A stretch of DNA of 64,000 bases, from assembly GCA_036339735.1 (NCBI GenBank), contig JAYZAL010000064.1, forward strand, positions 1 through 64,000. Reading direction: 5' to 3'. Below the pieces are notes generated by a model, which was not told the DNA's origin, made no database searches, and worked only from the letters and a program-made list of their open reading frames with translations. The stretch's first letter is position 1. Each line of letters starts with the position of its first letter. This DNA comes from Candidatus Poribacteria bacterium. GTDB lineage: Bacteria; Poribacteria; WGA-4E; UBA9662. The position numbers and the translations under genes are program-made. Below, piece after piece: positions 39,383 through 60,760 of this stretch.

Positions 39383-40258
39383 ATGGAAGTGCAACAAACA
39401 ATAAAAGCCACTCGATCTTGGAGTCAACGTCATCGATATCAAGGGAAGTCAGTTGGCTTTGTTCCAACCATGGGTGCCTTGCATCAAGGACATCTCAGTT
39501 TAGTTCGCCAAGCCCGAAAAGATAATGATTTTGTTGTAGTAAGCGTATTCGTTAACCCAATTCAATTTGCACCTAATGAAGATTTTGATAATTATCCCAG
39601 AAAATTTAGGCTAGACTTAGACTTACTCGAGAAAGAATGCGTTGATCTGGTTTTTGCACCTAGCAGTCAAGAAATGTACCCACAAGATGATAACCGTATG
39701 AACCAGACATGGTTGGACGTCGTTGGGCCAATTACTGAAGGACTATGCAGTACTAGTCGACCGACTTTTTTTCGTGGTGTAACAACTGTTGTGGCTAAAT
39801 TATTTAATATCGTTCAACCAAAACGTGCTTACTTTGGATGGAAAGATGCACAACAACTAGCAGCAATCCGACAAATGGTGAATGACTTGAACTTTGATCT
39901 AGAAGTAATCGGCTTGCCTATAGTACGAGAAGACGATGGTTTAGCTATGAGTTCACGAAACGTCTATTTAACAAAAGATGAACGCCAAGAGGCCAAAATG
40001 GTCTACCAATCCTTGGAACTAGCAAAATCCCAAATTCTACGAGGGGGGCAGTCTGTAAAAAAAATCACGGATGAGATGAAACTACTAGTGGAAGACTCGC
40101 CATTGATTCGAATTGACTATATTACAATTGTCTCTAGTCAAACATTCAGCCTAATCTCAGAACTTGAGCACGGACAAGATATCTTAATAGCAATAGCTGC
40201 TTATGTCGGAAACACCCGTTTAATTGATAATTTCCGACTAAAAGTTCCCCAGTTTTAA
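39383..40258 (+). CDS. panC: Pantoate--beta-alanine ligase
   Basis: VPTMGALHQGHLSL, SVFVNP.QF, GVTTVVAKLF, DGLAMSSRN, RLIDN. Confidence 0.98.
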   Translation: MEVQQTIKATRSWSQRHRYQGKSVGFVPTMGALHQGHLSLVRQARKDNDFVVVSVFVNPIQFAPNEDFDNYPRKFRLDLDLLEKECVDLVFAPSSQEMYPQDDNRMNQTWLDVVGPITEGLCSTSRPTFFRGVTTVVAKLFNIVQPKRAYFGWKDAQQLAAIRQMVNDLNFDLEVIGLPIVREDDGLAMSSRNVYLTKDERQEAKMVYQSLELAKSQILRGGQSVKKITDEMKLLVEDSPLIRIDYITIVSSQTFSLISELEHGQDILIAIAAYVGNTRLIDNFRLKVPQF

Positions 40259-41319
40259 TTCTTTGTTACTGAAATTGTGTCATCCACAAAGAATCCCTTA
40301 CTTGACTTAGGTGGAATGCTTAGTTCAACCAGGTTGTCGCTAACAGCAGACACCACTCCTGTTAATTCACGCATGACTCCCAATTTGATCATTTGTCCAG
40401 TTACTGGGTGAATAATTTCTTTGGGCGTTTTACTCAAAGTCAACTTGTTTCCACTCTCAACTTTATTAGGATTAATGCCCGCCATTTGTAGTATATCCCC
40501 TCTTATCGCAATGATCATGGCATTACCTAATAAACTTTTTTGTAGCTGTCCAACCAAGTTCTGGGGGGGGCGCTTAATTCTATCATATATTCCTACAATA
40601 TGCTGAGGCTTACTTTCTATCCCGGGTACGATAATAACTTCGCGGTCGATTTTATGTAATAGCTCAAAGGATGCAATCCCCTCTCCAGCATTTTTACCAA
40701 ATGCAACAGAAATTTCATTTCCATCGGCGTCTACTAAATTTATCTCCTGGTCTGGTTTAAATGGTACTTGTGGGCCGTTATCTAGGGATGCTGCTAGTTG
40801 ATTCGTTTCGGTTTCAGCCAGTCTTTCTTCTATGTCAGATCCTGCACCTTCAAATTTTCTTACTAAAATGGAGTGCCGTCCCAGTACTAGCAAACACTTG
40901 GCAGGTAATCGAACCAGTCGGATATTAGTACCAATATCGATCAGTGGCGGGCTTGTTTTGCTCCGGTCATCTGTTGTAACTTCGAAATCAGAGAGATAAA
41001 GAGTTGATCGGTTCTGATCTACATCGATAACTAACCCCATACCCAGAGGCGTTTTAATCGTTTGTGTCAGATTCGCATTAGCATCATACAAAATCTTTGG
41101 CCTATATATCTCTAATGTCATACCACGTCTAACTCCATCTAATCTACCCAAATTAACATTAACTCGCCGCGAGTTTATACTCAGAATTCGACCATCTTCG
41201 GGTGTAGATGAAATGGATCTTTTTTCTTCTTTTGCTTGGTGGTCATCCGATAGAGAACTGATGGTGATCATCATAACACCAATAGTGATGAGGCACCAAA
41301 GAACATAGTCTTTTTTCAT
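40255..41319 (-). CDS. Exported protein with 2-3 FlgT C-terminal-like beta-barrel repeats
   Basis: N-terminal hydrophobic segment; VNVNLGRLDGVRRGMTLEIYR and IIHPVTGQ.I.LG resemble FlgT_C-type domains (by eye). Confidence 0.55.
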   Translation of the reverse strand: MKKDYVLWCLITIGVMMITISSLSDDHQAKEEKRSISSTPEDGRILSINSRRVNVNLGRLDGVRRGMTLEIYRPKILYDANANLTQTIKTPLGMGLVIDVDQNRSTLYLSDFEVTTDDRSKTSPPLIDIGTNIRLVRLPAKCLLVLGRHSILVRKFEGAGSDIEERLAETETNQLAASLDNGPQVPFKPDQEINLVDADGNEISVAFGKNAGEGIASFELLHKIDREVIIVPGIESKPQHIVGIYDRIKRPPQNLVGQLQKSLLGNAMIIAIRGDILQMAGINPNKVESGNKLTLSKTPKEIIHPVTGQMIKLGVMRELTGVVSAVSDNLVELSIPPKSSKGFFVDDTISVTKN

Positions 41320-41325
41320 GATTTT

Positions 41326-42069
41326 TTACCAACGGAACCTAATTTCTCCAAAGATACCATTTCCAGTTGTTAGATAGGATGTCTGAACCACCGAATCAGT
41401 ATCTTGGTCTTGGATTAAAAATAGAACAGCGCTTGTAGTTAAACTCAAAACCGAAGCACCAAGTAACAATCCAGTTTGCCTATCGAGTTGTTGTGTTTTT
41501 GATTTGAACTCATCGGCTTTTGTTTTTACTAAAGCTTGTTTGAACATTTTATATGTACTATCTGCTCGATGGTTTGAGTAATATGCAGCAATGCTCAATG
41601 CTCCACCAATAGATAATGCCGTCCAAGCAAAGGGATTTGATTGGCGACGGTATGGCTGATCGTAATCAGAAGAACCAGCTAAATCTGGCAAATCTTGATT
41701 TAGAATACTAATACCATCTTTGGTCTGAACAACCTCTTGAACGGATACTAGGTCTGCAAAGCGTACCATTTTCCCAGTATCTGTCTCCGTGATTCTCGTT
41801 ATAGCACTATGTTCATAAGACTCAAGGACCTCTAGGCGAGCTACAGGAGATAGCTGATGTTCAATAGATTCGTATGCATAGCAGATATCACCTTCCTGCA
41901 AGTCATAATCCTTTCCCATATCAATATAGACAAAGCTTCGATCAACTAGGAGAACGTATCCTTGGTCCCAACCATCGAGAGCCATAGCAACATCAGCGAT
42001 CATACCAGCGAATAACAAGCAATAGAAGAAAAATCTTAACTTTAAACTCATTCTTAGAACTCTATTCAC
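41326..42069 (-). CDS. Exported protein with an FlgT_C-like domain and a C-terminal membrane hairpin
   Basis: Signal peptide; VYIDMGKDYDLQEGD; two Gly/Ala-rich hydrophobic helices; ends GIFGEIRFRW. Confidence 0.5.
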   Translation of the reverse strand: MNRVLRMSLKLRFFFYCLLFAGMIADVAMALDGWDQGYVLLVDRSFVYIDMGKDYDLQEGDICYAYESIEHQLSPVARLEVLESYEHSAITRITETDTGKMVRFADLVSVQEVVQTKDGISILNQDLPDLAGSSDYDQPYRRQSNPFAWTALSIGGALSIAAYYSNHRADSTYKMFKQALVKTKADEFKSKTQQLDRQTGLLLGASVLSLTTSAVLFLIQDQDTDSVVQTSYLTTGNGIFGEIRFRW

Positions 42070-42075
42070 AAAGAT

Positions 42076-45000
42076 CTAGTTTTCAATTGGCCTAACACAG
42101 CGAAAACCAATACCGGGGTACCCTGATTCAGGGGAAGCTTTTTCTCGGTTTGTGAGTGAAGTCATGAACCCATCTTCATGTAAACTTATTCCTCCGCGAA
42201 CAGCTTTCAATCCAGTATGGTCAACAGGCCCCGTCGGGTTTGAAGATATACCACTTTTAGAGTAATAGGTAGCGTCATACCAGTCAGCGACCCATTCCCA
42301 AGCATTTCCACACATATTATATATATTGTTCCGAGTTTTTCCATCTGGATGACGGTCAATTGGAGCCAAACCTCTCCCCGTTTGGATATTTACCAAGCTC
42401 GTAACTATGCCATTCCAACGATTTCCCCAAGCCCATCTAGGCCGGGTTTTAATACCTGAAAAATTACCCAACGCAGCCCGTTCCCACTCAGCTTCAGTCG
42501 GCAATCTTTTTCCAACCCATTCTGCATAATCATTCGCATCTTTCCAACTAACGTTCACAACAGGGAATTTGCCCATTCCTTTTGGGTATTTTCGGCCATT
42601 CCAGTGACTTGGTGGCATGCGATTAGTCGCATCCACAAAATCTTTGTACTCTGCATTTGTTACCTCATATTGATCAATATAATATGCTGACAAATTGACT
42701 AACCTCTCAGGTTTTTCATCGGATTCCCCATTTTCATTTCCCATCATGAAAGGAATTGTAGTGGCTGGAACATAGACCATACTTAAAGGAGCGTCAAGGT
42801 CAATTACCTTTGTGACGATAGCACTTTCATTCCCAGCTCGATCCTTAAATTTAACGAAAACTTTCTTTGGGCCTGGAGTTGATTCAACTAACCAATTAAG
42901 GGTTGAAGTGTAAGATTCCCATTCATTAAACTCTTGAGTGTTAGAGACTGACATTTGATAAACACCACTAGCGTCAGTAACGGCAAACTCTAGCTTCAAT
43001 TGCGGAGACTTCGTTTTTCCCTTTCCCCCATTAATTTCGAATTTATGAACAAACGGAGGTTGTTGATCAATCACGAGGCTACGATTAACAAAAGTTGTCT
43101 GACCGACCAAAACAGTGATCGGGGAAACCCTAATTTCATCAGTTCCCGATCGGTGAATAGAATAATTTCGATCACTTTCTAGATCCGTGATAGACCAATG
43201 GTCTCCAGAGGTAATTGTTTCGACTCTCAAAGAGTTAGATAACTTTATATTATTTTTACGTAGAGCAAGAATAAAAGGTTCCGTGAGATGTTGGTGAATT
43301 TCAAATTCACGTGCTATCTCGTCTACATCTATGTCAATTGTTACAGGAGCTTCCTCGACCATATATTTACCCGTATCAATCTTTAGTTGGTACTCTCCGG
43401 CAGGAATATCTCGGATAGTGGTTGGTGTTAGGTAAGGTTTTAGTTGAACTTCGGCACGTCCAACCGAAAATTTCTCTGAAGCTGCTGGTGAAAAAATTAA
43501 CGATCGCATCTGCCGTGGCTGGAGGCGAATATTAGCTTTCCCGACTTCAATTTGAACTTCGATAGGAGGCTCTATGTCGATTTCCGTAACCTGATCCGTA
43601 ACCTCGGCTTTTTTTACGGTAAGTTCCTTTCTTTCCGATATTTCACCATTTTCACCCAACTGCTCTAAATACAGAGTGTCTCCCGGAAATACAGCCGTAC
43701 CTTGTTCCACTACTAATACTTGACCACCTTTGTTGATCTCTTCTAATACCGGTATTTTTGGACCAACCCGTTGTTCTACGTTTTTAATTCCAATGATTTT
43801 ATGATCAGATCGAAACGCCACTAAACCATCAGCTGTCCGATTCTGAAGCCAAACTTTGTCGCCAATTTCAAAAACACGAATCGTTTTGGGCACCATATGT
43901 GTATCTCCAGGTTCCACCCCTCGAATAAGTGGGATAGGATCAGCTACGAGTTTTTCTAATGCCGTAGAGTTATCGGTGAACTGTGGTACTATTTTGATTA
44001 CTGCATTTGAAGGATCCGACAAGATTGTAATACTACCTCTACCACGCTTTAAGGTTAGAGGGGGAAATTTGGTAACTTCGCCAGATTGTATGAGTGCAAG
44101 CTTTTGTTCTGGTAAGTAAAACGATTTTGAAACTGTAATCTTACTCAATCGAAAAACTTGAGCCATATTCGAAAAGTTTCTTCTGAGACTATCCTTAAGT
44201 ATGAGTCGAGTTTGCCTCTCACCGCGACTACTAGATACTAACTGAGGCTCCAAGACCTCAGCGATCTCACTAATTTTAATACGAAATATCTTACACTTTC
44301 CCGTTGAGTAAGTATTTTTTACAGGATATTTCAATGTGATTTTGTTTATTCTATCCGCTACTGATTCAATTTCTGGTAAAGATTCTTCTCTCGTGACTCC
44401 TTCTTCGATGCTAATTACATCTCCAGCTCCAAACTCTGATGTTGAAGAGACAAATAACTCTACATCCCCAGGTTGTAGATCCTTCAATAGACTAACGGAG
44501 ACACCTGTGTTGTCAATTTCCTGAACCAATATATGACTTTCTTTAGGAAAATCAGCGCGCCACCCGATCTTTAGGCTGTGGTAAACCGATACCTTTCCGT
44601 CGCTCATTAAATAACTGCTATTTAGTGGATTTTTTAGTATGATTTTATTTCCTAGTTCAGTGACTGACTCAACTATAGGCAACGGCTTTTCAATGAATGA
44701 ATTGACTCCTATCTCTTGCTTAATCGTAACAACATCTCCAACTTCGAACCCTATGATTGACTCAACGTATATTTCGTTTTCTCCGGAACGGACATCTTTT
44801 ACTAAATGAGTCTTTACGGCTTTAGCATCTTCAACCAAATTGGCTGGTTCAACAACTGGCACGGCGATTACCTGGCCTTTATTAGGAGGTTGTATACGAA
44901 ATACACGAGCCGTTTTTGGGTCACTGACCTCGCTCCTTTGCCCAACACCAAAACTATCTGCTAAAGCAGGCTGGACAAAGAGAGTTGGCATCAAATTAAG

Positions 45001-45390
45001 TACTCCTATTCGAATTACAGTGTGGTCAGAGTAAATTTGCATATTGTCCATTTCGTTCCCACTTTGAAGGATACGTACACGGTCTCCCACGGAAAATCCT
45101 TCAGTAGTTCGAACGGAAACTCGATCATCACCTTTGTCTGAAGGTCGAATTAGCGGGACAGGATCACCTAACATCGGAACCTCGTCCAAAAGTTGACGAC
45201 TGCGTATTGGCCGAGGTTGTTGTTTCTGTGCTCGCTTCAAATTTTCATCAATTTGAATTTGTGCATCTGGAGGGTCTACCTCTATATAAAGATACCCATA
45301 ACCGCTTGCGCGAAGTAACGACACAGGAGATAATACGCAAAGACCAATAATAAAAATAGAAATTATATTTTTCAAGTTCATAACACCCAA
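42076..45390 (-). CDS. Large exported protein: two split PEGA domains, about six 80-aa repeats, an Ig-like domain and a C-terminal FGE/SUMF1 (C-type lectin fold) domain
   Basis: Signal peptide; GYLYIEVDPPDA and GSITILSDPSNA PEGA starts; FEINGG...VFVKFKDRAGNES; YEVTNAEY, PVVNVSW.DA, RLPTEAEWERAA, GNAWEW, GFRC. Confidence 0.85.
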   Translation of the reverse strand: MGVMNLKNIISIFIIGLCVLSPVSLLRASGYGYLYIEVDPPDAQIQIDENLKRAQKQQPRPIRSRQLLDEVPMLGDPVPLIRPSDKGDDRVSVRTTEGFSVGDRVRILQSGNEMDNMQIYSDHTVIRIGVLNLMPTLFVQPALADSFGVGQRSEVSDPKTARVFRIQPPNKGQVIAVPVVEPANLVEDAKAVKTHLVKDVRSGENEIYVESIIGFEVGDVVTIKQEIGVNSFIEKPLPIVESVTELGNKIILKNPLNSSYLMSDGKVSVYHSLKIGWRADFPKESHILVQEIDNTGVSVSLLKDLQPGDVELFVSSTSEFGAGDVISIEEGVTREESLPEIESVADRINKITLKYPVKNTYSTGKCKIFRIKISEIAEVLEPQLVSSSRGERQTRLILKDSLRRNFSNMAQVFRLSKITVSKSFYLPEQKLALIQSGEVTKFPPLTLKRGRGSITILSDPSNAVIKIVPQFTDNSTALEKLVADPIPLIRGVEPGDTHMVPKTIRVFEIGDKVWLQNRTADGLVAFRSDHKIIGIKNVEQRVGPKIPVLEEINKGGQVLVVEQGTAVFPGDTLYLEQLGENGEISERKELTVKKAEVTDQVTEIDIEPPIEVQIEVGKANIRLQPRQMRSLIFSPAASEKFSVGRAEVQLKPYLTPTTIRDIPAGEYQLKIDTGKYMVEEAPVTIDIDVDEIAREFEIHQHLTEPFILALRKNNIKLSNSLRVETITSGDHWSITDLESDRNYSIHRSGTDEIRVSPITVLVGQTTFVNRSLVIDQQPPFVHKFEINGGKGKTKSPQLKLEFAVTDASGVYQMSVSNTQEFNEWESYTSTLNWLVESTPGPKKVFVKFKDRAGNESAIVTKVIDLDAPLSMVYVPATTIPFMMGNENGESDEKPERLVNLSAYYIDQYEVTNAEYKDFVDATNRMPPSHWNGRKYPKGMGKFPVVNVSWKDANDYAEWVGKRLPTEAEWERAALGNFSGIKTRPRWAWGNRWNGIVTSLVNIQTGRGLAPIDRHPDGKTRNNIYNMCGNAWEWVADWYDATYYSKSGISSNPTGPVDHTGLKAVRGGISLHEDGFMTSLTNREKASPESGYPGIGFRCVRPIEN

Positions 45391-45394
45391 CTAA

Positions 45395-45742
45395 CTAAGC
45401 ACTCCTACTTTCCCACTTCCGATCTATCGAATAGACAAAAGCCAAAACCTCAGCTACTATTTGATAAAACTCTGGAGGGACTTCAGTTCCAACTTCAAGT
45501 TTGGCCAAGGCCTCCACTACGTCTGGCTGTTCGTAAATCGGTACGTCATGTTGCCTTGCTAATTCAACTATCCGATTAGCAATTTCGCCATCACCACCCG
45601 CGAGTATTTTGGGCGCTGAGTCAAATTCAGGTTGATAACGCAGAGCAATAGCCTTCTGTTTTTTTCTTAGTAATATATCCTTACTATTTTCTATTATTTC
45701 AACATCGCTGAGATTTTTTCGTTCGCTATGCACTGACATCAA
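45395..45742 (-). CDS. Stand-alone FlhB C-terminal-like protein (EscU/YscU/HrcU family, FlhX/YlqH type)
   Basis: KAIALRY...SAPKILAGG.GEIANRI.ELA..HDVPI, VPPEFYQIVAEVLAFVY; no NPTH and no TM domain. Confidence 0.92.
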   Translation of the reverse strand: MMSVHSERKNLSDVEIIENSKDILLRKKQKAIALRYQPEFDSAPKILAGGDGEIANRIVELARQHDVPIYEQPDVVEALAKLEVGTEVPPEFYQIVAEVLAFVYSIDRKWESRSA

Positions 45743-47051
45743 TTCGTCCCATGTTTACTGATATTTGTGAAACGTCAGTAATAACCTCTACTCCAGTTCT
45801 CTTCGAATCAATAACTTGAAATGCGACATCATCCAAATTGTAACGGATTGACTGCATACGTTCAAGGAGGTCAACTTTCTCATCAATAATGAAACTATTA
45901 TACTGTTGTTTCTCTGACATTATTAGACAGTTCATCTGTCTCTTTTGAACACGCAAATCGAACTTTAAGCTGCCAAGATTTTCTGTTTCAATTGACATTT
46001 CCAAGTGCATATTTTCCGTATCCAGTTTATCTTGGTCGTCTAAGTTATACCCCAAAACTTCCGCTGATAAATCCTTCTTATTTACACTGTATGGAATCTG
46101 AAAATAAACTTGGCTTCGTCCCGTAATCAATGGGTTCATAGCCAATTCTAACGCATCAATCTGACACAATACCGAATCGATGGCTTTATGCACTCGACTC
46201 AAGGATTCATCGGAGTACGGCATTTCTAATACGAGTTGGGTCTTGAATTGAATCAAATTGGCTTTTAGGCTTTTTCTCTGCAGGAATGCCTCTGAGGCAT
46301 TTGACCTTTGACCAGCTAAAAACAATTTTCGTTCGTATGACAACCCCAACAGGTTCACAGATTGAGAAATTTCTTCAGCTAAATTGTTTGAATTAGGGGC
46401 AATTGAACGCGTTGCTTCCAGAATCTGTCGATACAATTCGCTCTTACTACCAAAAGAATTAATCGAATCTTTAATTGAAGCCGTCAGTTCACTTCGTAAT
46501 AACCTAAATCTCTGGTGTAATTTGTCTTGCCGATAATAAAGATTTTTTAAAGCTCGAAACAGATGAGATTTAGGCGGAAAGTTTAACAACCAGCTAGTAA
46601 AGAGAAAGTTTGTACTGTAGCTCGTTCCTGATAGCGAATCAGCTTTTTGAGCATACTGAGCGAAATCAATCACGATACAAGGATCAATTGGAGTTTTATT
46701 CTGATACAGAATTTGAGCAAAATCGAGATGTCGCTGATTAGAAGGTAAACCAGCATCGTTAAGTAGAGATGTAATCTCAGAGTCAAATTTAGAGGGCATC
46801 GTACTTGTAGGAATAAAACTCATTCGTACTCCTCCTTTCAACGATATGACTTTTGCCTCAACTTCTTGACCTCGTCTGAGCCTAGATTTTATTTCAGTGA
46901 CTAACTTCTGTCCCTTAAAATTGATTAGGAATTGATTATTACCCAATACACGAACAACAATACCCTTTAAGATTTCGCCAGATTTTAATCCGGATTTAAA
47001 TGATGAAATCGACGGGTCTGTGACACGACCTAAAATTGGAGTCAATTTCAT
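45726..47051 (-). CDS. FliK-like (hook-length control family) protein, second copy
   Basis: N-terminal GEILKGIVV..L.N...LIN..G; C-terminal YFQIP...LEMSIETENLGSLKFDL..L.ERMQSI.Y; adjacent to FlhB-C, a common pairing. Confidence 0.7.
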   Translation of the reverse strand: MKLTPILGRVTDPSISSFKSGLKSGEILKGIVVRVLGNNQFLINFKGQKLVTEIKSRLRRGQEVEAKVISLKGGVRMSFIPTSTMPSKFDSEITSLLNDAGLPSNQRHLDFAQILYQNKTPIDPCIVIDFAQYAQKADSLSGTSYSTNFLFTSWLLNFPPKSHLFRALKNLYYRQDKLHQRFRLLRSELTASIKDSINSFGSKSELYRQILEATRSIAPNSNNLAEEISQSVNLLGLSYERKLFLAGQRSNASEAFLQRKSLKANLIQFKTQLVLEMPYSDESLSRVHKAIDSVLCQIDALELAMNPLITGRSQVYFQIPYSVNKKDLSAEVLGYNLDDQDKLDTENMHLEMSIETENLGSLKFDLRVQKRQMNCLIMSEKQQYNSFIIDEKVDLLERMQSIRYNLDDVAFQVIDSKRTGVEVITDVSQISVNMGRIDVSA

Positions 47052-47573
47052 CTACCTAGCAAGCCTTTGTAGTTCTTTTGCTAGTGCATCGGGGGGCAAA
47101 TCAACATTTCGATTAACAATTTGTCGAATTTGATCATTGGATTTGTTGAAGTCTCCCGAATAAAAGTATGCTTGAGCCAAAATCAGATGCAGGTGCCTCT
47201 TATTGACTCTAGAGTTAAAAACTGCCTGATAGTCAGCATTTGCTTTTTCCAGTGCAACGTTCGCATGCTTAATTGCCTCGGGAAATTGATTTGTTGACAG
47301 ATATATGCTGGCCAAACCAGCATTCGCATCAACATTACCCTCATCTTCTTTGAGTACTGCAGTGAATATACCCATGGCATCATCAACTTTACCTTCGGTT
47401 ATTTTCTTCCCTGCTTTTTTCAAGTCGGCAGTTTTATCAACAACAACAACTTCTTCTTTTACTAAGTTGTCATAGTTCCTATCGTTACAACCAAAGATAT
47501 ACAAGCAAAAAATAGTAACAAATAAACAACTCTTTATAAGCTTATTTAAAGCAAAATGCCGTACACGAAACAC
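47052..47573 (-). CDS. TPR lipoprotein
   Basis: Lipobox-like IFGC; TPR helices ANAGLASIYL...F.EAI and HLILAQAYFYSGDF. Confidence 0.75.
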   Translation of the reverse strand: MFRVRHFALNKLIKSCLFVTIFCLYIFGCNDRNYDNLVKEEVVVVDKTADLKKAGKKITEGKVDDAMGIFTAVLKEDEGNVDANAGLASIYLSTNQFPEAIKHANVALEKANADYQAVFNSRVNKRHLHLILAQAYFYSGDFNKSNDQIRQIVNRNVDLPPDALAKELQRLAR

Positions 47574-47581
47574 GATTTCTC

Positions 47582-50517: not shown

Positions 50518-50572
50518 TAAGGCTAAATTTATAGATTCTTACGAATCGGTTTATGTGGATTGAATGGGTCTT

Positions 50573-53500
50573 CTATTTCAATATTACCATCTTTTTTAAA
50601 GATGTTTGGTGATCCGTTTGTAGCTCATAGAAGTAGACTCCACTCGCAACTTGTTCACCATTTGCGTTACGGCCATCCCAATATGCTGCAAATCCTTGGC
50701 TAGAATAATCTCCTGCAGGCATTATTCCCAAGTTCAATTCCTTAACTAAAATACCTGTCGCATCGTAAATCCGAATCGATACATGCGATTGCTGACTGAG
50801 CTTATAGGGTAACCATGTCTCAGGGTTGAACGGGTTTGGATAGTTCTGGGCTAGTTCAGTTTTCTGCGGCTTCTTTAAAGTCTCAATAGTTTGAACCCAT
50901 CCCCCTTCAGGGTGAGAGTAAATGTTACGGCCTCCATCCACCACTACTAAACGTTCTAGTTTAATGTCGCCATAACCTCCAGCTTTGCTGACAAAAGAGA
51001 AACTTGCCAAATCGGAAGTCCCAGAAGCATTACCATTCCTTCCAGCAATCATATTAGCTACCAAAATCCTGTTAAGACCATTTGATTCCTCAAAAGTACG
51101 ACTAATAAAGAATGTCTCGGCATTAGATGAATTACGTTCCAGAATTTGGCCTGCCTCTACCTTTTCGTCCATTAAATGCCACAGATCAGGATCGTAAGTC
51201 AGTTCGAACGCATAACCTTTTATACTGTCAACCTTAGCCATGACTTGAAGACTTATTGTTTCTCCCTCTTGAACAACCTGTGGCAAATTTGGCTTGATCA
51301 ATTGGAAGGTTTGCTCTACGATCGCAGGTGAAGCTGCTGGCGGCGGACCACCATCGCCAGTAGGTGGAACACCCAATCCCCCAAAGTCACTAACAATGAT
51401 GTCGTAGTCCACTAGGTTGATGTTACCATCGTCGTTCAAATCGGCATTATCATTGAATTGCTCATGCCCCTCTTGAGTCCCCCAAGCTTGCATAAACAAG
51501 TTCATGTCCCCTATGTTTATCCTGTTATCACCATCAATATCTCCACCAATTAAGTATTGATCCTGATCTTTCGAGTAAATGTCGATACCACGCAAATTAT
51601 CACCAGGAATCACTACTAAAGTGGAAGTATTAGCTTTGGGTTGGTATTGCCCACGCAAATAGGAATTTGCCTTGGCAACTAGCTCCCAAGTACCTCTTGG
51701 TACCCCTTGAATAGTATATGACCCGTCAGCTTTAGTTGTTACTTGAATCCCAGGTTTAGCTTCATCTTCATCATTTGCAATACTATCAATTTCTAAATCT
51801 TCAGTTGTACCTGGTTTACGCAAAGAGAATGTAACTTCAGCTGAATGATCTCGACGTCCTTCCAATTTAACTTTTCCAAAAATAGCTGCATGAGGCAAAA
51901 TCTGAATAGCTAGAGCCGGCGTATTGGCTATCGGTGAGACATTCTCCCGAGTATCTGTTAAAGGATCAATTATAGCAATTGAAGTCCCTCGATTACTAGC
52001 AGCCTCATCGAAATCAAATGAAACTGTAGTATTGATCGGGCGTGTACCCTCGTGTTCTTTCACCTTAAAAGTTAAGGTTGTCAATGTTCGATAGATACCA
52101 GTCCTAACAGCTTTAGAATTATTTTTAATAACTATACTGTAATCTAACTGAAACCCACTAATACCGTTGGCCATACTATCCTCAATAGTATCATCGTGGG
52201 TGTCGTTTTCTAGAACCTCTTGCTGGTTTTCTTTAGCATCATCTAGATCAAAAATTAACGATGATTTGTCGACCCCATCATCTGAAGAGGACAGTTGGCG
52301 AAATGGTAAAGCCGAATCCTGAATTTCCAGGTACCGGTCATCAAAAGTCATGTAAATGCTTGCCCCTTTGATCTTAACATCCGGACTTCTTAGTTGAACA
52401 CGGACCTGAAACTCTTCGCCTGGTCCTGCCGCAATAGATGCTGGGCGTAAGCGGATATTCACCTTACGAATGGTTACACTACCGGCAGCTTTACTATATG
52501 CTTCATTACCACTACCATCCGTCGCTTTCGCATAAATAAAATAAGAACCGTTTAAACCAAATTCATTCGCAGATTCGAAAGATTCAATATCCCAGGAGTA
52601 AGACCCTAAGCCGGCTGAAGTCTGGTAATTAGTGGTCAAAACACCCGACTGGACTGTATTATCACTCACTTCACCTATGATTATCCTAGCGTCATCCTCC
52701 AATGTATGATAATACAAGTTAATTTTTATATCATTGTTATCGATATCTTCTGTATGCCATGAAACAGTATATTCATCTATCGCACGAGAGCCCTGAAGAA
52801 TCGGTGAAATTAGCTTAATCGTTGGCGGATATTTGACAATTAGCCGCCCCCTACTGCGCAACGCCTTTTCTTTAATTTCTGATTCTTCTTTAGCTTTCGT
52901 TGGGTCTTTATCGCTGATTATGGCATAGATATAGTAGCCAGAAAGGCTTTCTTTCACATTTTGATTACGAAAGTTCCACTTGTACTGGCCTAAATCCTCA
53001 TCTTCATCTTCACTCAAGTTGCCGGCAATAAACTCAGTGTTTTCCCGTAATGTTACCAAATCTAAGGTCGAGAGATTCTTGTCGCTATAATAAAGACTGA
53101 TCCTAGCGTCCCCTAGATTTTTTTTGTCAGTCCACTGAACTATAAAAGAGCCATCTGTAATATCAACATCGTTCTGAGGTGTTAGATTGCTCAGGAAAAC
53201 ATCATGCCTCACCTCAACTTGCCCCGGAGCTCGAACCAGTTCAGAACTTATGTCAGTGTCTTCTATAATGCCGTATATCGTATAGAGTCCTTCCGGAATA
53301 TTACGTGTTTCCCAGATAATATTGGTTTCTTCTGCTCCAACAGTCAATTCCACTGGTATGGAATCCGAAGGATCGATACTTGGTATGGCTGGAACTAAAA
53401 CGCTTGTGTCACTCTCTGTTGCAACACGGGCTTTCAAGCCAGCAATGTCCTCAGGCCCGAAATCGTCTTTTCCAGAATAAAACAACGTAATTTTTGCCTT

Positions 53501-54703
53501 CGGGTTAGGTCCGCTAGCACTGAACCCAACTTGACCTTGATCATCAAAAATCACGGCAGGTACTTTGAATGGCGAGAGTATTTTTAGTACAGGCTTTTCT
53601 GGCAATTTAGTAATAACAGGACCGGACGAACTGAAGTCTTCTGCAGGACCTGCAGGAACAGATTTACTGAAAGTAAAACTCGTTCCCTGCTGAAGAATAA
53701 CGCCGATCGTATCACCTTCCCTAGCCTTACCTTCGGTCTTTGTTAAAGCTGCCAAAAGAAAAGTGTTTTGCGTTGAGCCTTCAGGTTCCGCCCCAAGTAA
53801 TGGTTGATCAAGTTCAAATGACAGGCTTATAAGATCTGTTTTAATTTCCGCAATTGGTGCACCATCGTTTTCATCTAGGACACGCAAAGGTTCAATATCT
53901 TTGTAAAGATAAAGTGTCTCAACCGACTCACGGACGAAAGGTGGAGCCAATTGAAGAGTCATCGACATCATATTTTGGGCTATATCCGACCTGACTTCAA
54001 TTGCAGATAAAGCAACTCTCTTATTAAAGGAAACTGGCTTCCCATCATTGAGAGCCGTTACTATGATTGATTCGATCCCCTTAACCATTGGCCCATCAAT
54101 CCGTCTCTGATCTTCCATCGCGGAAACCCTATCGGCCTCACGAAAGAAAAAAGCATGACTGCTAAGATAAAGAATTACCTGATTACCTCTCGTGGTTTTC
54201 CCGGGATTAAGAACGACGACTAAAAGGAAATTAGTGGTTGTTTCTTCCCCAAGTTTACCTACAGGTAACCCAAGCCCTGCTTTTTGCAAGTTTAGCGGGG
54301 CTCGGCTATTGATATCAAGAACCTCTGAGGTAATCCACTCAGCGCTATCTGGCTTTCCATCTTTGTTGACGTCTTCATACAGTTCGATCTTGGCAATTGA
54401 AGTGTCCTCCACCCCTTTATTCTGTTCTTCCAATTTAAGATTACTTACTTTCAGGAAAAACCATTCATCTTGCCCTCCATCATCTGTAATAGCTATATTT
54501 GCAACTACAGCTTGCAAGTCACCAGGATCAACCAATTCATCCGAAGTAACTGGTTGGACATTGATGTTAGTGACAAGGCCCCAAGACAAATAGGGCGAAC
54601 AGAAAACACCCACAATACAAAGTATTAAACCAGCGTAAATAGAACTATATGTTCGGTAGAGTAAAGAACAGCTAATAGACACTGCTCGGTCAAACTTCCT
54701 CAT
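50573..54703 (-). CDS. Giant exported Ig-repeat protein with two cohesins, a dockerin and a C-terminal FlgD-Ig/T9SS-type-A-like domain
   Basis: Signal/TM; LYED.N.DG repeats; three I.LYY...W....G.Y.IY repeats; cohesins PGEEFQVRV..GASIYMTFD and EGETISLQV..GYAFELTYD; dockerin GDIDGDNRINIGD...ADLNDDGNINLVD; NYPNPFNPETW..WDGRN..GE.VASGVYFY. Confidence 0.8.
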   Translation of the reverse strand: MRKFDRAVSISCSLLYRTYSSIYAGLILCIVGVFCSPYLSWGLVTNINVQPVTSDELVDPGDLQAVVANIAITDDGGQDEWFFLKVSNLKLEEQNKGVEDTSIAKIELYEDVNKDGKPDSAEWITSEVLDINSRAPLNLQKAGLGLPVGKLGEETTTNFLLVVVLNPGKTTRGNQVILYLSSHAFFFREADRVSAMEDQRRIDGPMVKGIESIIVTALNDGKPVSFNKRVALSAIEVRSDIAQNMMSMTLQLAPPFVRESVETLYLYKDIEPLRVLDENDGAPIAEIKTDLISLSFELDQPLLGAEPEGSTQNTFLLAALTKTEGKAREGDTIGVILQQGTSFTFSKSVPAGPAEDFSSSGPVITKLPEKPVLKILSPFKVPAVIFDDQGQVGFSASGPNPKAKITLFYSGKDDFGPEDIAGLKARVATESDTSVLVPAIPSIDPSDSIPVELTVGAEETNIIWETRNIPEGLYTIYGIIEDTDISSELVRAPGQVEVRHDVFLSNLTPQNDVDITDGSFIVQWTDKKNLGDARISLYYSDKNLSTLDLVTLRENTEFIAGNLSEDEDEDLGQYKWNFRNQNVKESLSGYYIYAIISDKDPTKAKEESEIKEKALRSRGRLIVKYPPTIKLISPILQGSRAIDEYTVSWHTEDIDNNDIKINLYYHTLEDDARIIIGEVSDNTVQSGVLTTNYQTSAGLGSYSWDIESFESANEFGLNGSYFIYAKATDGSGNEAYSKAAGSVTIRKVNIRLRPASIAAGPGEEFQVRVQLRSPDVKIKGASIYMTFDDRYLEIQDSALPFRQLSSSDDGVDKSSLIFDLDDAKENQQEVLENDTHDDTIEDSMANGISGFQLDYSIVIKNNSKAVRTGIYRTLTTLTFKVKEHEGTRPINTTVSFDFDEAASNRGTSIAIIDPLTDTRENVSPIANTPALAIQILPHAAIFGKVKLEGRRDHSAEVTFSLRKPGTTEDLEIDSIANDEDEAKPGIQVTTKADGSYTIQGVPRGTWELVAKANSYLRGQYQPKANTSTLVVIPGDNLRGIDIYSKDQDQYLIGGDIDGDNRINIGDMNLFMQAWGTQEGHEQFNDNADLNDDGNINLVDYDIIVSDFGGLGVPPTGDGGPPPAASPAIVEQTFQLIKPNLPQVVQEGETISLQVMAKVDSIKGYAFELTYDPDLWHLMDEKVEAGQILERNSSNAETFFISRTFEESNGLNRILVANMIAGRNGNASGTSDLASFSFVSKAGGYGDIKLERLVVVDGGRNIYSHPEGGWVQTIETLKKPQKTELAQNYPNPFNPETWLPYKLSQQSHVSIRIYDATGILVKELNLGIMPAGDYSSQGFAAYWDGRNANGEQVASGVYFYELQTDHQTSLKKMVILK

Positions 54704-54744
54704 ATCTTCTCTTCTTCCTTGTTATGAAGTTAGACGAACTAAAA

Positions 54745-56184
54745 CTACATAAAATTAAATAGACTTGGTGACATAGTACGCGCACCGGTTTGAAGCATAG
54801 CTGTCAACATGTTAAGTTGTATCTGATACTCAACAACTGCGTCTGAATAATCAACTTGCTCTACAGTTTCAAGAAACTGTTCGAGCGCTAAATTTTTATC
54901 CGACAATCGATTACGTAATGTGTCAGCTCGGTTAAGTTTTCCCCCAACCTGAGTTTGTAAAATTGTTATATGCTCAATAGAACTCTCCATAGCATTCGAA
55001 AGTTCTTCAATAGCACCTTTCCCTTGATTTCTAACAGCGGCTTGCAAGTCGACTAATTGATCAAAAACTCTTTGAAAAGCTACATCCCCGGGCATCCCGA
55101 CTTCGATAAAAGAGCTTTTTCCAACTCGCTCTAAATGAACCCCTTCATCTCCTTGATAACTAATACCGACTATATCCCCGATACCAACACTGGTATGCTT
55201 TATAACCCTTGCATCTAATCCTGCATCGTAAGTGTTCTGCAGAGGCGTTTTCAATAAGACAACAGCTTCATTCTTTGTTAGATCCGTCTGGACAGTCTCA
55301 ACCAAAGCTATTTCCGAAACCCCTCCCATACCTTGCACAACAATTTGATCTCCTGCTTCCAAAGCTCCTTGAACTCTGTCCAATGGAAGGACCACCGCTC
55401 TTCGTTCGGCACTTTTTAACAATGGAACAGCCACTGTGGTATCTTCGCTTTCTATATCGGCTTCCTCACCATCCACTTTAGGTTTTGTCAAAACAGCTGG
55501 TTGATTCGATTCAACTGAGTAATTATTTGATAAATCTGAATTGAATTGTATCACAACGCTGTCGCCTGACGACTGAACCGACGAGACCGTAACATATTCT
55601 TGATTTTCACCCTGTTTCAAAACTAATTCATCCCCTACGGAGAACGAATCGGCATATTCTAAACCAATCTCTACTTTATCATGAGAGACGTTTCTAGCAA
55701 ATTTAAATTCTCTTGTGGCAACTGTAGACTGGCTCCGCTCAGCCGTAAAAGCTGTACCTTCCGTTCTATTACCAGCAAACAGAGGTTTACCCTCAAAAGT
55801 GGTATTCACAGTTTCCAATGTCGATTCTACTAACTGCTTTAATTCTTCTGCATAAAACTTATAATCCGAAGGATGATTAGTATCGGACAGGGCCATCTGC
55901 GCTAAATCACGAGCTCTACCTAAAATACTCTGTACATCCTGATACACCATATTTTCTACGCTAAGCTGAGCTTCTGTGTGATTCACGTTTGAAACGAATT
56001 GCTCGTTCTGGGAAATATGTCCCCTAATATCCAGAATCTTGTTGGCTAAAGCTGGGTCATCTGATGGTTTCTGAATTCTTAAACCGGTGGAGACCCGCAT
56101 TTGAGCCTTCTCTAGGTTTTCCAACGCAGTATTAATCTTTCTTTTTAGATTGTCAGCTTGTCCTGCACTTGTAACACGAGCCAT
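54745..56184 (-). CDS. flgL: Flagellar hook-filament junction protein FlgL with two inserted repeat domains
   Basis: STGLRIQKPSDDP, GKPLFAG, YQGD, C-terminal VDYSDAV...SLFNFM; follows flgK. Confidence 0.9.
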   Translation of the reverse strand: MARVTSAGQADNLKRKINTALENLEKAQMRVSTGLRIQKPSDDPALANKILDIRGHISQNEQFVSNVNHTEAQLSVENMVYQDVQSILGRARDLAQMALSDTNHPSDYKFYAEELKQLVESTLETVNTTFEGKPLFAGNRTEGTAFTAERSQSTVATREFKFARNVSHDKVEIGLEYADSFSVGDELVLKQGENQEYVTVSSVQSSGDSVVIQFNSDLSNNYSVESNQPAVLTKPKVDGEEADIESEDTTVAVPLLKSAERRAVVLPLDRVQGALEAGDQIVVQGMGGVSEIALVETVQTDLTKNEAVVLLKTPLQNTYDAGLDARVIKHTSVGIGDIVGISYQGDEGVHLERVGKSSFIEVGMPGDVAFQRVFDQLVDLQAAVRNQGKGAIEELSNAMESSIEHITILQTQVGGKLNRADTLRNRLSDKNLALEQFLETVEQVDYSDAVVEYQIQLNMLTAMLQTGARTMSPSLFNFM

Positions 56185-56216
56185 TTATTTGCTCCTTCAA
56201 CGGTACGAATATTCTA

Positions 56217-57728
56217 TTATCTTGGTGCCATTCGATTAATAACAGTATCAGTCATTTGGTCAATTGTTGACATCATCCGAGCCGCAGCTTCGAAAATACT
56301 TTGATATTGCATCATGGTAACGAGTTCTTCATCTAAAGAAACTCCAGAAACACTTTGCCACCTAGCCTCAAGTTGATCCCGTACCAGTTGAGTTGTATTA
56401 ACTCGGCGCTCGTTTTCATCTGACAACCCACCCAAAGAAGCGACAGAAGTGTTATAAAAATCTGTAAAATTCAAAGTTCCTTCTTCAAAAAACAAAGTAT
56501 TCTGTAGAGATACCATTTCCAAAGCATTCTCATTCTCTCCCCTAGCTGTTCCTTTTGCCGTAGCAATCAGATTGAGGTTCCCTGCAACTTCTGGTGCCAT
56601 TTTGATGGTAGCTGCAATTCTAGATGGTGGTTGAGTTTCAGGAGGAGCTGTTTCGCCAGTACCATAAGAAACTGTTCCATTAGCATCCGGCAAATTAAAC
56701 TGAAATAGGGACTGACCGTTCGACCCTGTTAACCCACGACCAGACTGATGTACACGATTAATTTGACGAACAAAAGTGTATGCAAAACGGTCTAAGTTTT
56801 TGAGTGTCTGAGGAATTATTTCATCCTGCATCCGTAACAAACCAGCGATTGCACCACCACGGATTGTTACATCTCGGGTTTGACCTGGCTGTTTCAGTAC
56901 GACGTCAACCAATTGCTCTGAGATTGCAGTCGTTGTGTCCATCGCACCATCCAAAGGTTTCTTTGGAATTACTTTCAGTTCATTAACTTCGGTTTCTTGT
57001 ATAAGCGGATTACCATCTAACATCACCATGACGGTACCATTATCTTGCTCTATAACACGAACGTCAACCAATTGAGCTATTTCACCTACTAATTCGTCTC
57101 TCAAATCCAGTAAATTTGCGGCTTCTGTCGGCTCTGCCACACTGGAAATATCTTCATGTATAACTGATAATTGACGCAATAGAGAATTTACACGATCAAC
57201 ACGGATCTTTATATCTTCGGCAAACGTTGGCTGCAATTCTTCTAAGTCTGCATAAAACCCACGCAAATCTCCGGCAACAGCTTGAGCCTTGGTCCTGACC
57301 TCTGCTCTGAAAGCTGAATCAGTAGGATCTTGAGCCAAAGTCTCCCAAGCGTTAAAAAAATCAGAAACGGTACTATTGAAATTATCCTCCGATAAAGAAT
57401 TAAAGATAATCTCAATCTGTTGGATGCCTTTTTGCTCCTCTTCTAACTGATTCAACCTCTGATCAGCATACCTAATCTGAGTTTCAATAAACACATCACG
57501 CTTGCGGTCTAGCCTGGCCAAAGCACTCCCAGTACCAAGATGTATCGTTCTGCCAAGACCAGACAAACCACGGTGCTCTATACTCTCCGTGGTTGAAATA
57601 ATTGGAACCTGACGATGATAAGCCCTATTGCCCGCGTTAGATACGTTTTGCTGATTTGTCTGAATCGCAGCCTGATGCGTTTGCATCGACCGTCGACTCA
57701 TTTCGAGAATACTAAAAAGAGTGGACAT
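56217..57728 (-). CDS. flgK: Flagellar hook-associated protein FlgK
   Basis: NVSNA...YHRQ, FFNAWE.L..DP, LLDLRD.L, SVSGVSLDEEL..MMQYQ..F.AAAR. Confidence 0.96.
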   Translation of the reverse strand: MSTLFSILEMSRRSMQTHQAAIQTNQQNVSNAGNRAYHRQVPIISTTESIEHRGLSGLGRTIHLGTGSALARLDRKRDVFIETQIRYADQRLNQLEEEQKGIQQIEIIFNSLSEDNFNSTVSDFFNAWETLAQDPTDSAFRAEVRTKAQAVAGDLRGFYADLEELQPTFAEDIKIRVDRVNSLLRQLSVIHEDISSVAEPTEAANLLDLRDELVGEIAQLVDVRVIEQDNGTVMVMLDGNPLIQETEVNELKVIPKKPLDGAMDTTTAISEQLVDVVLKQPGQTRDVTIRGGAIAGLLRMQDEIIPQTLKNLDRFAYTFVRQINRVHQSGRGLTGSNGQSLFQFNLPDANGTVSYGTGETAPPETQPPSRIAATIKMAPEVAGNLNLIATAKGTARGENENALEMVSLQNTLFFEEGTLNFTDFYNTSVASLGGLSDENERRVNTTQLVRDQLEARWQSVSGVSLDEELVTMMQYQSIFEAAARMMSTIDQMTDTVINRMAPR

Positions 57729-57746
57729 TCTTAATCCTTAAACTAT

Positions 57747-58256
57747 TCAAATCCTATGATCGAACATGCCTTTACCTTGTGGGCTACGGACATGACCATC
57801 ATCTTGATAAGTATCTCCTGGTTCATCAATTCGCATTACTTCATCAACCAGGAAAGACGCGTATTCTTGCTCACTTTCTAATAGACTTTTGTTGGTATCA
57901 TTAATAAACTCGAACTCTCTTTTTACTCGTTCTACACGCTGAAAAAGCTTTTGATAATCCGATTTTAGAGGTTCGTCTGCCAATTTGGTAATCGTTGTCG
58001 CGTTTAGTGATTGATCAACTAAACCTTCTTCCGTCGCCAACTTAGTCAGAAGAACATCACGAGTAATTTCAATCTTTTGGATCTTTTGGATAGTTGATTC
58101 CTCATTCTTAATCAATTCTTCCAATTCTTTAATTTCACGCTTTACTAACAGATCTCGCTCGGCATACAAAATCTTCAAGAGTTCATAGTACTTATCAAGT
58201 TCATAGCGCAACAGTTCAAACAAATCAGAAAGCAATGCTTGCAATATAACTACCAC
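57747..58256 (-). CDS. flgN: Flagellar export chaperone FlgN
   Basis: Helical protein with L...E..LL, N..N..LL, TY...G and C-terminal FDHRI; directly upstream of flgK. Confidence 0.8.
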   Translation of the reverse strand: MVVILQALLSDLFELLRYELDKYYELLKILYAERDLLVKREIKELEELIKNEESTIQKIQKIEITRDVLLTKLATEEGLVDQSLNATTITKLADEPLKSDYQKLFQRVERVKREFEFINDTNKSLLESEQEYASFLVDEVMRIDEPGDTYQDDGHVRSPQGKGMFDHRI

Positions 58257-58284
58257 TAAGCCCCAAGATATTCGCTACTTTAGG

Positions 58285-58311
58285 GTATCGACAGAAAAGC
58301 CAACAACTTTA
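58285..58311 (-). promoter_or_regulatory. Sigma28 (FliA/SigD) promoter for flgN-flgK-flgL
   Basis: TAAA-15 bp-GTCGATAC versus consensus TAAA-N15-GCCGATAA. Confidence 0.75.
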
Positions 58312-58312
58312 C

Positions 58313-59098: not shown

Positions 59099-59133
59099 GA
59101 AACTTTCCCCTATCTTAGATACCTAAAGATCTA

Positions 59134-60715: not shown

Positions 60716-60760
60716 AATCTTTATCTTCTTAGACGTTCTTCAATCTTTATCTTCTTAGAC
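60716..60760. repeat. Perfect 19-bp direct repeat at the flgC/flgE junction
   Basis: AATCTTTATCTTCTTAGAC at 60716-60734 and 60742-60760. Confidence 0.95.

Follow-up and report, generated by a model that had tools for sequence, protein, structure and literature searches.

A conserved block of nine genes extends the late operon of a second flagellar gene set beyond flgL in pelagic Poribacteria

The window analyzed here is a stretch of 64,000 nucleotides (nt) from Candidatus Poribacteria bacterium (assembly GCA_036339735.1, contig JAYZAL010000064.1, positions 1 to 64,000). The genome (G000), which belongs to a pelagic lineage of free-living marine Poribacteria, holds two complete flagellar gene sets, A and B, and the window carries the axial and late half of set B. 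The late operon of this set does not end at flgL, and continues on the same strand into nine further genes that are kept in order 3′ of flgL in three families. Three of these genes encode accessory types known in other flagellar systems, and the remaining six (a giant secreted protein with cohesin and dockerin domains, a 589-amino acid (aa) protein whose head is modeled as a cohesin fold, a lipoprotein with TPR repeats, a protein combining PEGA with an FGE-fold domain, and two small barrel proteins) are undescribed in flagellar loci. We consider it moderately probable that the nine genes are the flagellum's own accessory block and that the six supply lineage-specific parts of the envelope and surface. 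The literature searched, in which coverage of subscription journals is thin, contains nothing on poribacterial flagellar systems or a flagellum-linked cohesin-dockerin, and neither a PEGA/dead-FGE protein nor a cohesin-dockerin pair in flagella; the paper defining Pelagiporibacteria is said to report flagellar genes.

The nine open reading frames (ORFs) lie on the minus strand from 54703 down to 40255 (14,449 nt) and are numbered g1 to g9 in order from flgL. They are listed here together with the predicted promoter site of the operon.

58287..58311, minus strand: sigma28-like promoter site, TAAAG-N15-GTCGAT, predicted from sequence in the 56-nt gap 5′ of flgN
50573..54703, minus strand: g1, secreted giant of 1376 aa (Pfam; PDB profile matches; full-length orthologues at 31–95% identity)
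49348..50517, minus strand: g2, exported lytic transglycosylase, SLT domain at residues 270–371 (Pfam SLT, 95.2 bits)
47582..49351, minus strand: g3, exported protein of 589 aa, with a predicted cohesin-fold head (18–177) and four Ig-like domains (AlphaFold2, fold searches)
47052..47573, minus strand: g4, small TPR protein with a lipobox-like IFGC, a probable lipoprotein (Pfam TPR_19, 45.9 bits; lipobox by inspection)
45726..47051, minus strand: g5, FliK2-like protein, weakly matched, directly before flhX (Flg_hook 21.1 bits, cut-off 29.8)
45395..45742, minus strand: g6, FlhX, a stand-alone FlhB C-terminal domain of 115 aa without the membrane part (Pfam Bac_export_2, 74.8 bits)
42076..45390, minus strand: g7, exported PEGA protein of 1104 aa, whose C-terminal FGE-fold domain has neither catalytic cysteine (Pfam FGE-sulfatase, 144.5 bits)
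41326..42069, minus strand: g8, 247 aa, with an N-terminal signal, a probable small barrel and two hydrophobic helices near the C-terminus (hhalign, hidden Markov model (HMM))
40255..41319, minus strand: g9, 354 aa, with two FlgT_C-type barrels and a FlgE outer-domain insert at 130–231 (FlgT_C 22.7 bits, cut-off 27)

The operon is tightly packed. From the sigma28-like site through flgN-flgK-flgL and the nine genes all gaps are 55 nt or less, and the junctions of the block itself comprise gaps of 41, 55, 8, 4, 6 and 6 nt, one abutment, and overlaps of 4 and 17 nt. It ends at the convergent panC, with the stop codons of g9 and panC overlapping. This gene run, with its short gaps, overlaps and abutment, is as the original prediction described it, and the ORFs and gene matches also bear out that no flagellin, fliD, fliW or csrA lies 3′ of flgL in the window. 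The gap before flgN contains TAAAG-N15-GTCGATAC. We assigned to the sigma28 (FliA) class a TAAA-N15-GCCGATAA-like site that lies 5′ of the first gene and is kept in relatives, and the predicted site has both properties: it is present in 8 of 8 loci from three families, with the -10 GTCGA invariant in all eight and TAAAG in seven. A loose sigma28 pattern has 4 matches in the window against 0.85 expected, and a similar site is found at one flagellin gene elsewhere in the genome (contig C47). No terminator-like site was found by a consensus scan of the 41-nt gap between flgL and the giant.

Part of the region from 49300 to 58400 is present in RNA-library contigs from 18 runs in 13 studies. Four runs from four studies cover positions 40001–60000 in 30, 30, 28 and 30 of 30 bins (the two empty bins being in run X3); the gap between flgL and the giant is bridged by a contig in all four, and the junctions farther downstream are spanned by other contigs. 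Depth varies along the stretch. In run X4 one contig has an in-frame AAA insertion behind 47492 within g4, a strain variant.

The block is found 3′ of flgL in the window, in seven further genome loci and in 16 metagenome loci, at 24–95% identity. In the sister genus (G003, G005 and G006) all 18 queried genes are in the same order at 27–77% identity. Family f6 (G143) has flgN-K-L, giant, SLT, g3, TPR and FliK-like, in this order, and the contig then ends inside the FliK-like gene, before the position of the PEGA/FGE gene. In family f7 (G139) the genes upstream run flgG-A-H-I, a FlgJ::FliK fusion, flgD, TIGR02530, flgC, flgE, flgF and flgN-K-L, and flgL is followed by the giant, g3, TPR, PEGA/FGE, GNAT, FlgT_C-like, a 244-aa protein and a 537-aa flagellin. 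Of these two families only f7 thus shows the PEGA/FGE gene, and TPR orthologues of g4 are at the same place in f6 and f7. At the 16 metagenome loci with a g3 orthologue all neighbors within reach are block genes in the same order, and flgN-K-L precede the giant at each of the four that extend far enough upstream. Among the 24 loci, no orthologue of the giant or g3 stands outside a flagellar locus. The four weakest metagenome candidates (L084 to L087) had been dropped as Ig-domain paralogues with no block neighbors. The predicted tie between the block and flagellar genes thus holds by synteny, with the same order after flgL in three families.

Co-occurrence gives the same answer, in that the block is seen only where the second flagellar set is present. 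The sample comprises 151 genomes of the phylum, 13 of which have flhA. Full-length g3 is present in five genomes (G000, G003, G005, G139 and G143), each with two full flhA genes; it is present in none of the 7 with a single flhA and in none of the 138 sampled relatives without flhA, four of which give weak domain matches only. Two genomes, G004 (80% complete) and G054 (95% complete), show only an A-type flgK and are without full-length g3, and the payload of the giant was not found in either with the query used. Likewise, no giant follows flgL in the fetched loci of the single-set families f5, f8 and f9, and the g8 and g9 profiles find no relatives among the flagellar loci fetched from single-set lineages and from set A. 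A supposed paralogous block on contig C26 (a TPR paralogue and a weak barrel match) was rejected as a module, its neighbors being an MFS transporter and DnaJ.

The two gene sets are dispersed over several contigs. Set A is divided between C68 (a sigma54-type two-component pair, flgC, fliE-J, fliK, flgD, flgE, motAB, fliM and fliO-R), C77 (flgA-H-I-J-M-N-K-L and flgG/F) and C24 (flhB-A-F-G, fliA and FapA). Set B consists of the end of C79 (flgB, fliE-J, flbD, motAB, fliL, fliM, fliN, fliO-R, flhB and flhA) and the operon on C64. There are accordingly two flhA genes; there are also two fliD genes, on C46 and at the start of C5, and at least three flagellin loci, on C46 (with flaG, fliD and fliS), on C47 and at the end of C11. 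Since flagellins and fliD are encoded elsewhere, the missing flagellin after flgL is a matter of gene placement, not of an absent filament. The set B FlgK and FlgI proteins of the three families form one clade in each tree with support of 100/99 (the trees are unrooted, without outgroup). Between fliJ and flbD of set B lies a 241-aa ORF without a Pfam match (C79:122910-123635), in a position that is often occupied by small motor accessory proteins in other phyla. Sister genera have extra partial flhA genes that cover the first ~240 profile positions only (G005:C34:36996-37736, G003:C67:144036-144757 and G004:C506:9691-10401), one of them with an internal TGA; these pieces may be remnants or a third truncated copy.

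Three genes of the block have counterparts in other flagella. The best NCBIfam model for g2 is the BB0259 flagellar lytic transglycosylase of Borrelia (NF047373), at 79.5 bits against a cut-off of 234 and through the SLT domain only. Like BB0259, and like SltF of Rhodobacter sphaeroides, another flagellum-specific lytic transglycosylase, g2 is an SLT-domain enzyme that is exported and whose gene stands among flagellar genes, in a genome where both FlgJ proteins are without a hydrolase domain and FlgJ has its rod-binding domain only; unlike BB0259, its likeness is confined to the catalytic domain, the N-terminal 260 residues being unrelated. On sequence grounds g6 is clearly a stand-alone FlhB C-terminal domain (Bac_export_2 profile positions 262–335 of 335; TIGR00789 at 103.2 bits, just below the cut-off of 117.35). 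The likeness of g5 to FliK is weak: comparison with the operon's own FliK C-terminal domain gives an hhalign probability of 0.7%, and its profile finds nothing in PDB. Excerpts of bioRxiv 10.1101/2021.08.29.457346 describe a FliA-dependent fliK2-flhX operon in Pseudomonas putida and FlhX (HP1575) in Helicobacter pylori. As in the excerpted account of P. putida, a FliK-C-like gene (g5) directly precedes a stand-alone FlhB-C gene (g6) behind a predicted FliA-type promoter; unlike that arrangement, g5 and g6 are embedded in a 12-gene late operon and the FliK likeness is slight. The original prediction had counted the SLT, FliK-like and FlhB-C proteins as part of an undescribed apparatus; all three are present in the block, but they are accessory types known from other flagellar systems.

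The giant is a mosaic. Its N-terminus is Sec-type by inspection, and the signal is followed by a payload of ~700 aa, a first predicted cohesin at ~745–930, an X-module and dockerin at ~980–1105, a second predicted cohesin at ~1125–1275, and a tail of the type IX secretion system (T9SS) type at 1288–1374. The payload resembles no recognizable family in profile searches or in ESM Atlas (≤0.81). Pfam reports Dockerin_1 (27.2 bits, cut-off 22.9), Por_Secre_tail (31.2 bits, cut-off 27) and FlgD_ig, and the tail matches TIGR04183 at 30.1 bits (cut-off 23), which places it among T9SS type A C-terminal sorting domains. The dockerin has the duplicated calcium-binding segment with an X-module directly before it, and in PDB profile searches this part matches type II X-module-dockerin (XDoc) chains (5k39_B at 3.6e-11, 2b59_B at 2.9e-9), with matches at positions 981–1100 spanning both X-module and dockerin of 2b59_B, 3kcp_A and 5g5d_B (E 2.9e-9 to 3.6e-8). 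The cohesins of the window's own giant match neither Pfam PF00963 nor a PDB cohesin by single-sequence or profile search; orthologues exceed the Pfam Cohesin cut-off of 24.1 at both positions (25.6 bits in G139, 39.7 bits in G005), and PF00963 is on record in 7 of 10 clusters of giant orthologues. The last 100 residues of the giant (the T9SS-type/FlgD_ig tail) recur at ~39 other places in the genome at 36–60% identity. One of its paralogues, of 3101 aa, has the same cohesin-XDoc-cohesin-tail end (C45:24249-33554) and is followed by genes for a DUF2007 protein and a TPR protein and by mutS2, dnaG and rpoD.

The partner candidate, g3, has no Pfam match, and as a sequence its cohesin is weak (PDB profile E 0.18–0.96). 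Its AlphaFold2 model, built from 20 sequences, has a mean predicted local distance difference test score (pLDDT) of 82.6, and in a VIA-align comparison of residues 18–177 with 48,161 chains the top 20 are all cohesins (Z 11.9–15.7 over 127–151 residues, root-mean-square deviation 2.2–3.9). The modeled head would therefore have the nine-stranded jelly-roll fold of a cohesin over the whole domain. For the remainder Foldseek finds strings of Ig domains; in ESM Atlas, which offers leads only, the protein resembles Ig/He_PIG/cohesin clusters (≤0.89), and its profile also matches the first cohesin of the giants (E 1e-5 and 1.2e-4). The cohesin-dockerin pair is thus real at the level of domains and fold, and from it we infer the binding of g3 to the giant and where the two would be located. 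The cohesin/dockerin claim of the original prediction stands in this form, by Pfam for the dockerin, by the orthologues for the cohesins of the giant and by fold for g3, with Pfam blind to cohesin in the proteins of the window; the lectin-fold head that accompanied it was not detected by any search. The closest known counterparts are the anchors of cellulosomes, both in the type II XDoc of the giant (2b59, 5k39, 5g5d and 3kcp, at 3.6e-11 to 3.6e-8) and in the fold of the g3 head (e.g. 5k39_A, Z 14.2 at 18% identity). Unlike cellulosome pairs, this one comes with no glycoside hydrolase or carbohydrate-binding module, sits in a flagellar operon of a diderm host, and includes a giant that itself bears two cohesins and a T9SS-type tail.

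Four other proteins complete the block. The PEGA repeats of g7 are weak in the window protein and over the cut-off in 4 of 7 orthologues. FGE enzymes have two catalytic cysteines. Aligned to FGE 6muj, g7 has H and M at these two columns, and the family consensus (6 sequences) has no Cys at either, so that its FGE-fold domain is most likely a non-catalytic structural domain, as far as the alignment goes. The best NCBIfam model for g7 is GldK (TIGR03525, 74 bits against a cut-off of 350), and like PorK/GldK, the FGE-fold ring lipoprotein of T9SS, g7 is an exported envelope protein with an FGE-fold domain without catalytic cysteines; unlike PorK/GldK, this domain matches true FGEs (6.6e-28) better than it does PorK (3e-9). 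The N-terminal half of g7 was considered as a row of FlgT_C barrels and rejected, hhalign probabilities against g9 and g8 being 0.2–0.3%. FGE-fold domains recur at ~33 places in the genome.

The barrel of g9 recalls FlgT. Among its remote homologues in a full HMMER scan, 68 of 94 carry Pfam FlgT_C, with CsgG in 21 of 94, LpoB in 13 of 94, FlgT_M in 4 and FlgO in 3. The insert of g9 (window 40627–40932) is 35% identical to residues 208–300 of FlgE of the same operon (E 2e-14), and is present in this genus and close metagenome relatives only, not in the sister genus. For g8, which has no Pfam match, the N-terminal domain compares with the g9 barrel at an hhalign probability of 67% (E 5e-5) and an HMM cross-match of E 8e-6, which suggests that g8 probably shares this barrel; a simple barrel HMM made from four g9 orthologues finds no significant paralogue in g7 or g8. 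Neither g8 nor g9 matches FlgT_N or FlgT_M at E up to 10. The prediction of two FlgT_C-like proteins is probably right for g9, which falls below the cut-off yet is matched in 7 of 7 orthologues, and for the second it comes down to the hhalign value and cross-match of g8. The AlphaFold2 model of g9 (7 sequences) is poor, with a mean pLDDT of 48.2 and usable only at 262–354, and a fold match to chain 8z5n_5 of the Vibrio LPHT ring (Z 9.2, 22% identity) was set aside as not above unrelated six-stranded barrels. Away from both gene sets, a 617-aa protein with CsgG/LpoB and FlgT_C adjoins a 478-aa LPP20-family (FlgP-like) lipoprotein (C1:90222-93527); this pair may form a complex of the envelope or else belong to the motor of set A.

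Added rings are familiar from other motors: the H and T rings of Vibrio (FlgT, FlgO, FlgP, MotX and MotY), the disks and cage of Campylobacter and Helicobacter (FlgP, PflA and PflB), and the spirochaete collar. Like such scaffolds, the block consists of lineage-specific exported proteins encoded with flagellar genes, with putative FlgT_C-type barrels (g9 and probably g8) and a TPR lipoprotein (g4) beside a diderm motor with L and P rings. Unlike Vibrio FlgT, g8 and g9 are without FlgT_N and FlgT_M, g9 in this genus being two barrels and a FlgE-like insert; unlike the Vibrio and Campylobacter scaffolds, the block has no match to FlgO, FlgP, MotX or MotY in Pfam or NCBIfam; and it adds a PEGA/dead-FGE protein and a cohesin-dockerin pair. 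Periplasmic and outer-membrane scaffolds of motors are reviewed in PMC7990780 and PMC6375700. Two complete and divergent flagellar sets in one genome are likewise reminiscent of the dual systems of R. sphaeroides and of Vibrio parahaemolyticus, the latter with polar and lateral flagella. The systems shown here differ from other dual systems in that they belong to an uncultured phylum and that only one set carries an extra block. The Fla1 and Fla2 systems of R. sphaeroides are treated in PMC7277832.

Taken as the flagellum's own, the block might work as follows. The sigma28-type site before flgN, together with read-through from the rod and hook genes, probably expresses flgN-K-L and the nine genes. 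The Sec-exported lytic transglycosylase g2 would open peptidoglycan for a rod whose FlgJ is without a hydrolase domain, and the FliK2-FlhX pair (g5 and g6) may modulate the export switch. The g4, g7, g8 and g9 proteins most likely form a periplasmic or outer-membrane-associated scaffold around the L and P rings, for which other motors offer analogues in their H/T rings, basal disks and collars. By virtue of its C-terminal sorting domain the giant is probably secreted by a T9SS-like route, and its X-dockerin would bind either the cohesin head of g3 or a cohesin of a neighboring giant, giving an assembly on the surface, either at the base of the flagellum or close to it. A more specific form of this proposal, in which the giant and g3 self-assemble by cohesin-dockerin contacts into an extracellular or outer-membrane collar around the base of the second flagellum, seated on a periplasmic scaffold of PEGA/dead-FGE, TPR and FlgT_C-barrel proteins, is speculative and seems unlikely in all its parts. 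A giant-g3 pair has one dockerin and three cohesins, so that head-to-tail chains or rings are possible. If true, the collar would be the first flagellar structure with cellulosome-type connectors and T9SS-type cargo.

Several observations weigh against the flagellar reading of the block. Flg_hook reaches E ≤0.01 in 4 of 7 g5 orthologues and FlgT_C reaches E <0.01 in all 7 g9 orthologues, none in either case over the cut-off, and FlgT_C barrels also occur in non-flagellar envelope proteins (CsgG and LpoB are among the g9 homologues). BLAST did not recover SLT, FliK2 or FlhX from the locus of f7. A weak hairpin and T run lie 16–37 nt inside the ORF of the giant, and RNA-library contigs, which may contain DNA, cannot as contigs prove one transcript. 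The remaining points concern the giant and g3, and also favor the main rival explanation, that these two, perhaps with g7, are a surface adhesin or serve particle attachment, and are merely co-regulated with the late flagellar genes, with SLT, FliK2-FlhX and the FlgT_C/TPR proteins alone serving the flagellum; swimming cells would be made ready to stick, and the pair would not be a structural part of the motor. At least four further large proteins (on C45, C58, C94 and C100) carry the C-terminal dockerin-cohesin-tail cassette, and the tail alone stands at its many other places, all away from flagellar genes, and a 1489-aa paralogue of g3 is likewise away from them on C1; with such paralogues, the pair could be one of several general surface proteins. 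The g3 model is a string of Ig-like domains as in adhesins and S-layer proteins, and cohesin-dockerin pairs are known surface-anchoring devices (PDB titles). Moreover, g3 has a Sec-type signal only and no sorting tail, so that a giant on the surface and a periplasmic g3 would not meet, and the T9SS machinery is only dimly visible, with SprA_N at 22.5 bits (cut-off 27) in a 2176-aa ORF and a best PorV-like match in the genome of 90.4 bits (cut-off 250). Nonetheless, the payload and g3 are kept directly after flgL in three families at 24–51% identity, are missing wherever set B is missing, and have no orthologue off flagellar loci in the 24 loci, and we regard a merely co-regulated adhesin as rather unlikely.

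Two other explanations fare less well. It seems very improbable that the nine are unrelated envelope genes that came to lie downstream of flgL by chance packing with no flagellar link; bacterial operons do acquire unrelated genes, and 6 of the 9 are without a flagellar family match above a curated cut-off, but the order is kept over three families, the block is present and absent as set B is, in f7 it is flanked by flgL and a flagellin gene, and it has FlhX, FliK-like, SLT and FlgT_C-barrel genes within it and a copy of a FlgE domain in g9. The original prediction had also raised a hook-basal body repurposed for adhesion or display, and a filament-less set B that displays or anchors a cohesin-dockerin scaffold would fit the lack of flagellin and fliD in this operon in family f1. 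However, set B keeps flgK, flgL and flgN, the search of the genome located two fliD genes and the three or more flagellin loci, and a flagellin gene is found 3′ of the block in G139; by inspection, the giant, g3, g7, g8 and g9 have Sec-type signals at the N-terminus and so would not pass the flagellar export channel. We therefore hold this explanation to be the least credible, with hardly any chance of being right. The reading as the flagellum's own accessory block is left as the one we prefer.

The axial genes of set B lie upstream of the block in the window, and the operon starts beyond it with flgG-flgA-flgH-flgI at ~C64:67468.

62039..63892, minus strand: fusion of flgJ N-terminal (rod-binding) and FliK C-terminal parts, 617 aa in one ORF, set B (Pfam Rod-binding 43.6 bits, Flg_hook 67.5 bits)
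61608..62024, minus strand: flgD, set B (Pfam FlgD, 84.6 bits)
61181..61576, minus strand: TIGR02530/Flagellar_put protein (NCBIfam TIGR02530, 112.5 bits, cut-off 83.2)
60755..61174, minus strand: flgC, set B, displaced into this operon (TIGR01395, 159.9 bits, cut-off 102.1)
59134..60699, minus strand: flgE, set B hook (Pfam Flg_bb_rod, FlgE_D2 and Flg_bbr_C)
58313..59098, minus strand: flgF-like rod gene (TIGR02490, 182.9 bits, cut-off 178.5)
57747..58256, minus strand: flgN (Pfam FlgN, 69.9 bits)
56217..57728, minus strand: flgK, set B (Pfam FlgK_D1, 189.7 bits; in the set B clade, support 100/99)
54745..56184, minus strand: flgL, set B (Pfam Flagellin_N, 66.3 bits, without Flagellin_C)

The FlgJ::FliK fusion has its rod-binding domain at 94–142 and its FliK C-terminal domain at 481–559; G139, which belongs to another family, has this fusion too, and a separate fliK is not present in the C79 cluster of set B. 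The flgC gene of set B is placed between the TIGR02530 gene and flgE, and on C79 (116455-117194) flgB is directly followed by fliE. Elsewhere in the window a 1259-aa protein with PSCyt1, PSCyt2 and PSD1 domains ('planctomycete cytochrome') is encoded at 26535–30314 on the minus strand, next to a 504-aa NYN-domain protein at 30342–31856.

What sets the flagellar motors of different lineages apart is chiefly the parts added in the periplasm and at the outer membrane, and the added parts known are mostly those of a small number of cultured Proteobacteria, Campylobacterota and spirochaetes. In the present case two complete flagellar systems occur in an uncultured marine phylum, one of them with six conserved and undescribed genes for the envelope and surface, among which the cohesin-dockerin pair and the T9SS-type tail are module types not so far linked to flagella. 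The block is also a clean genomic marker that separates the two systems. If the six genes build part of the motor or its surroundings, they would widen its known list of parts and provide a case of cellulosome-type connectors put to new use in an organelle of motility; if they are instead a co-regulated adhesin, they would connect swimming with attachment to particles in a bacterium of the open water.

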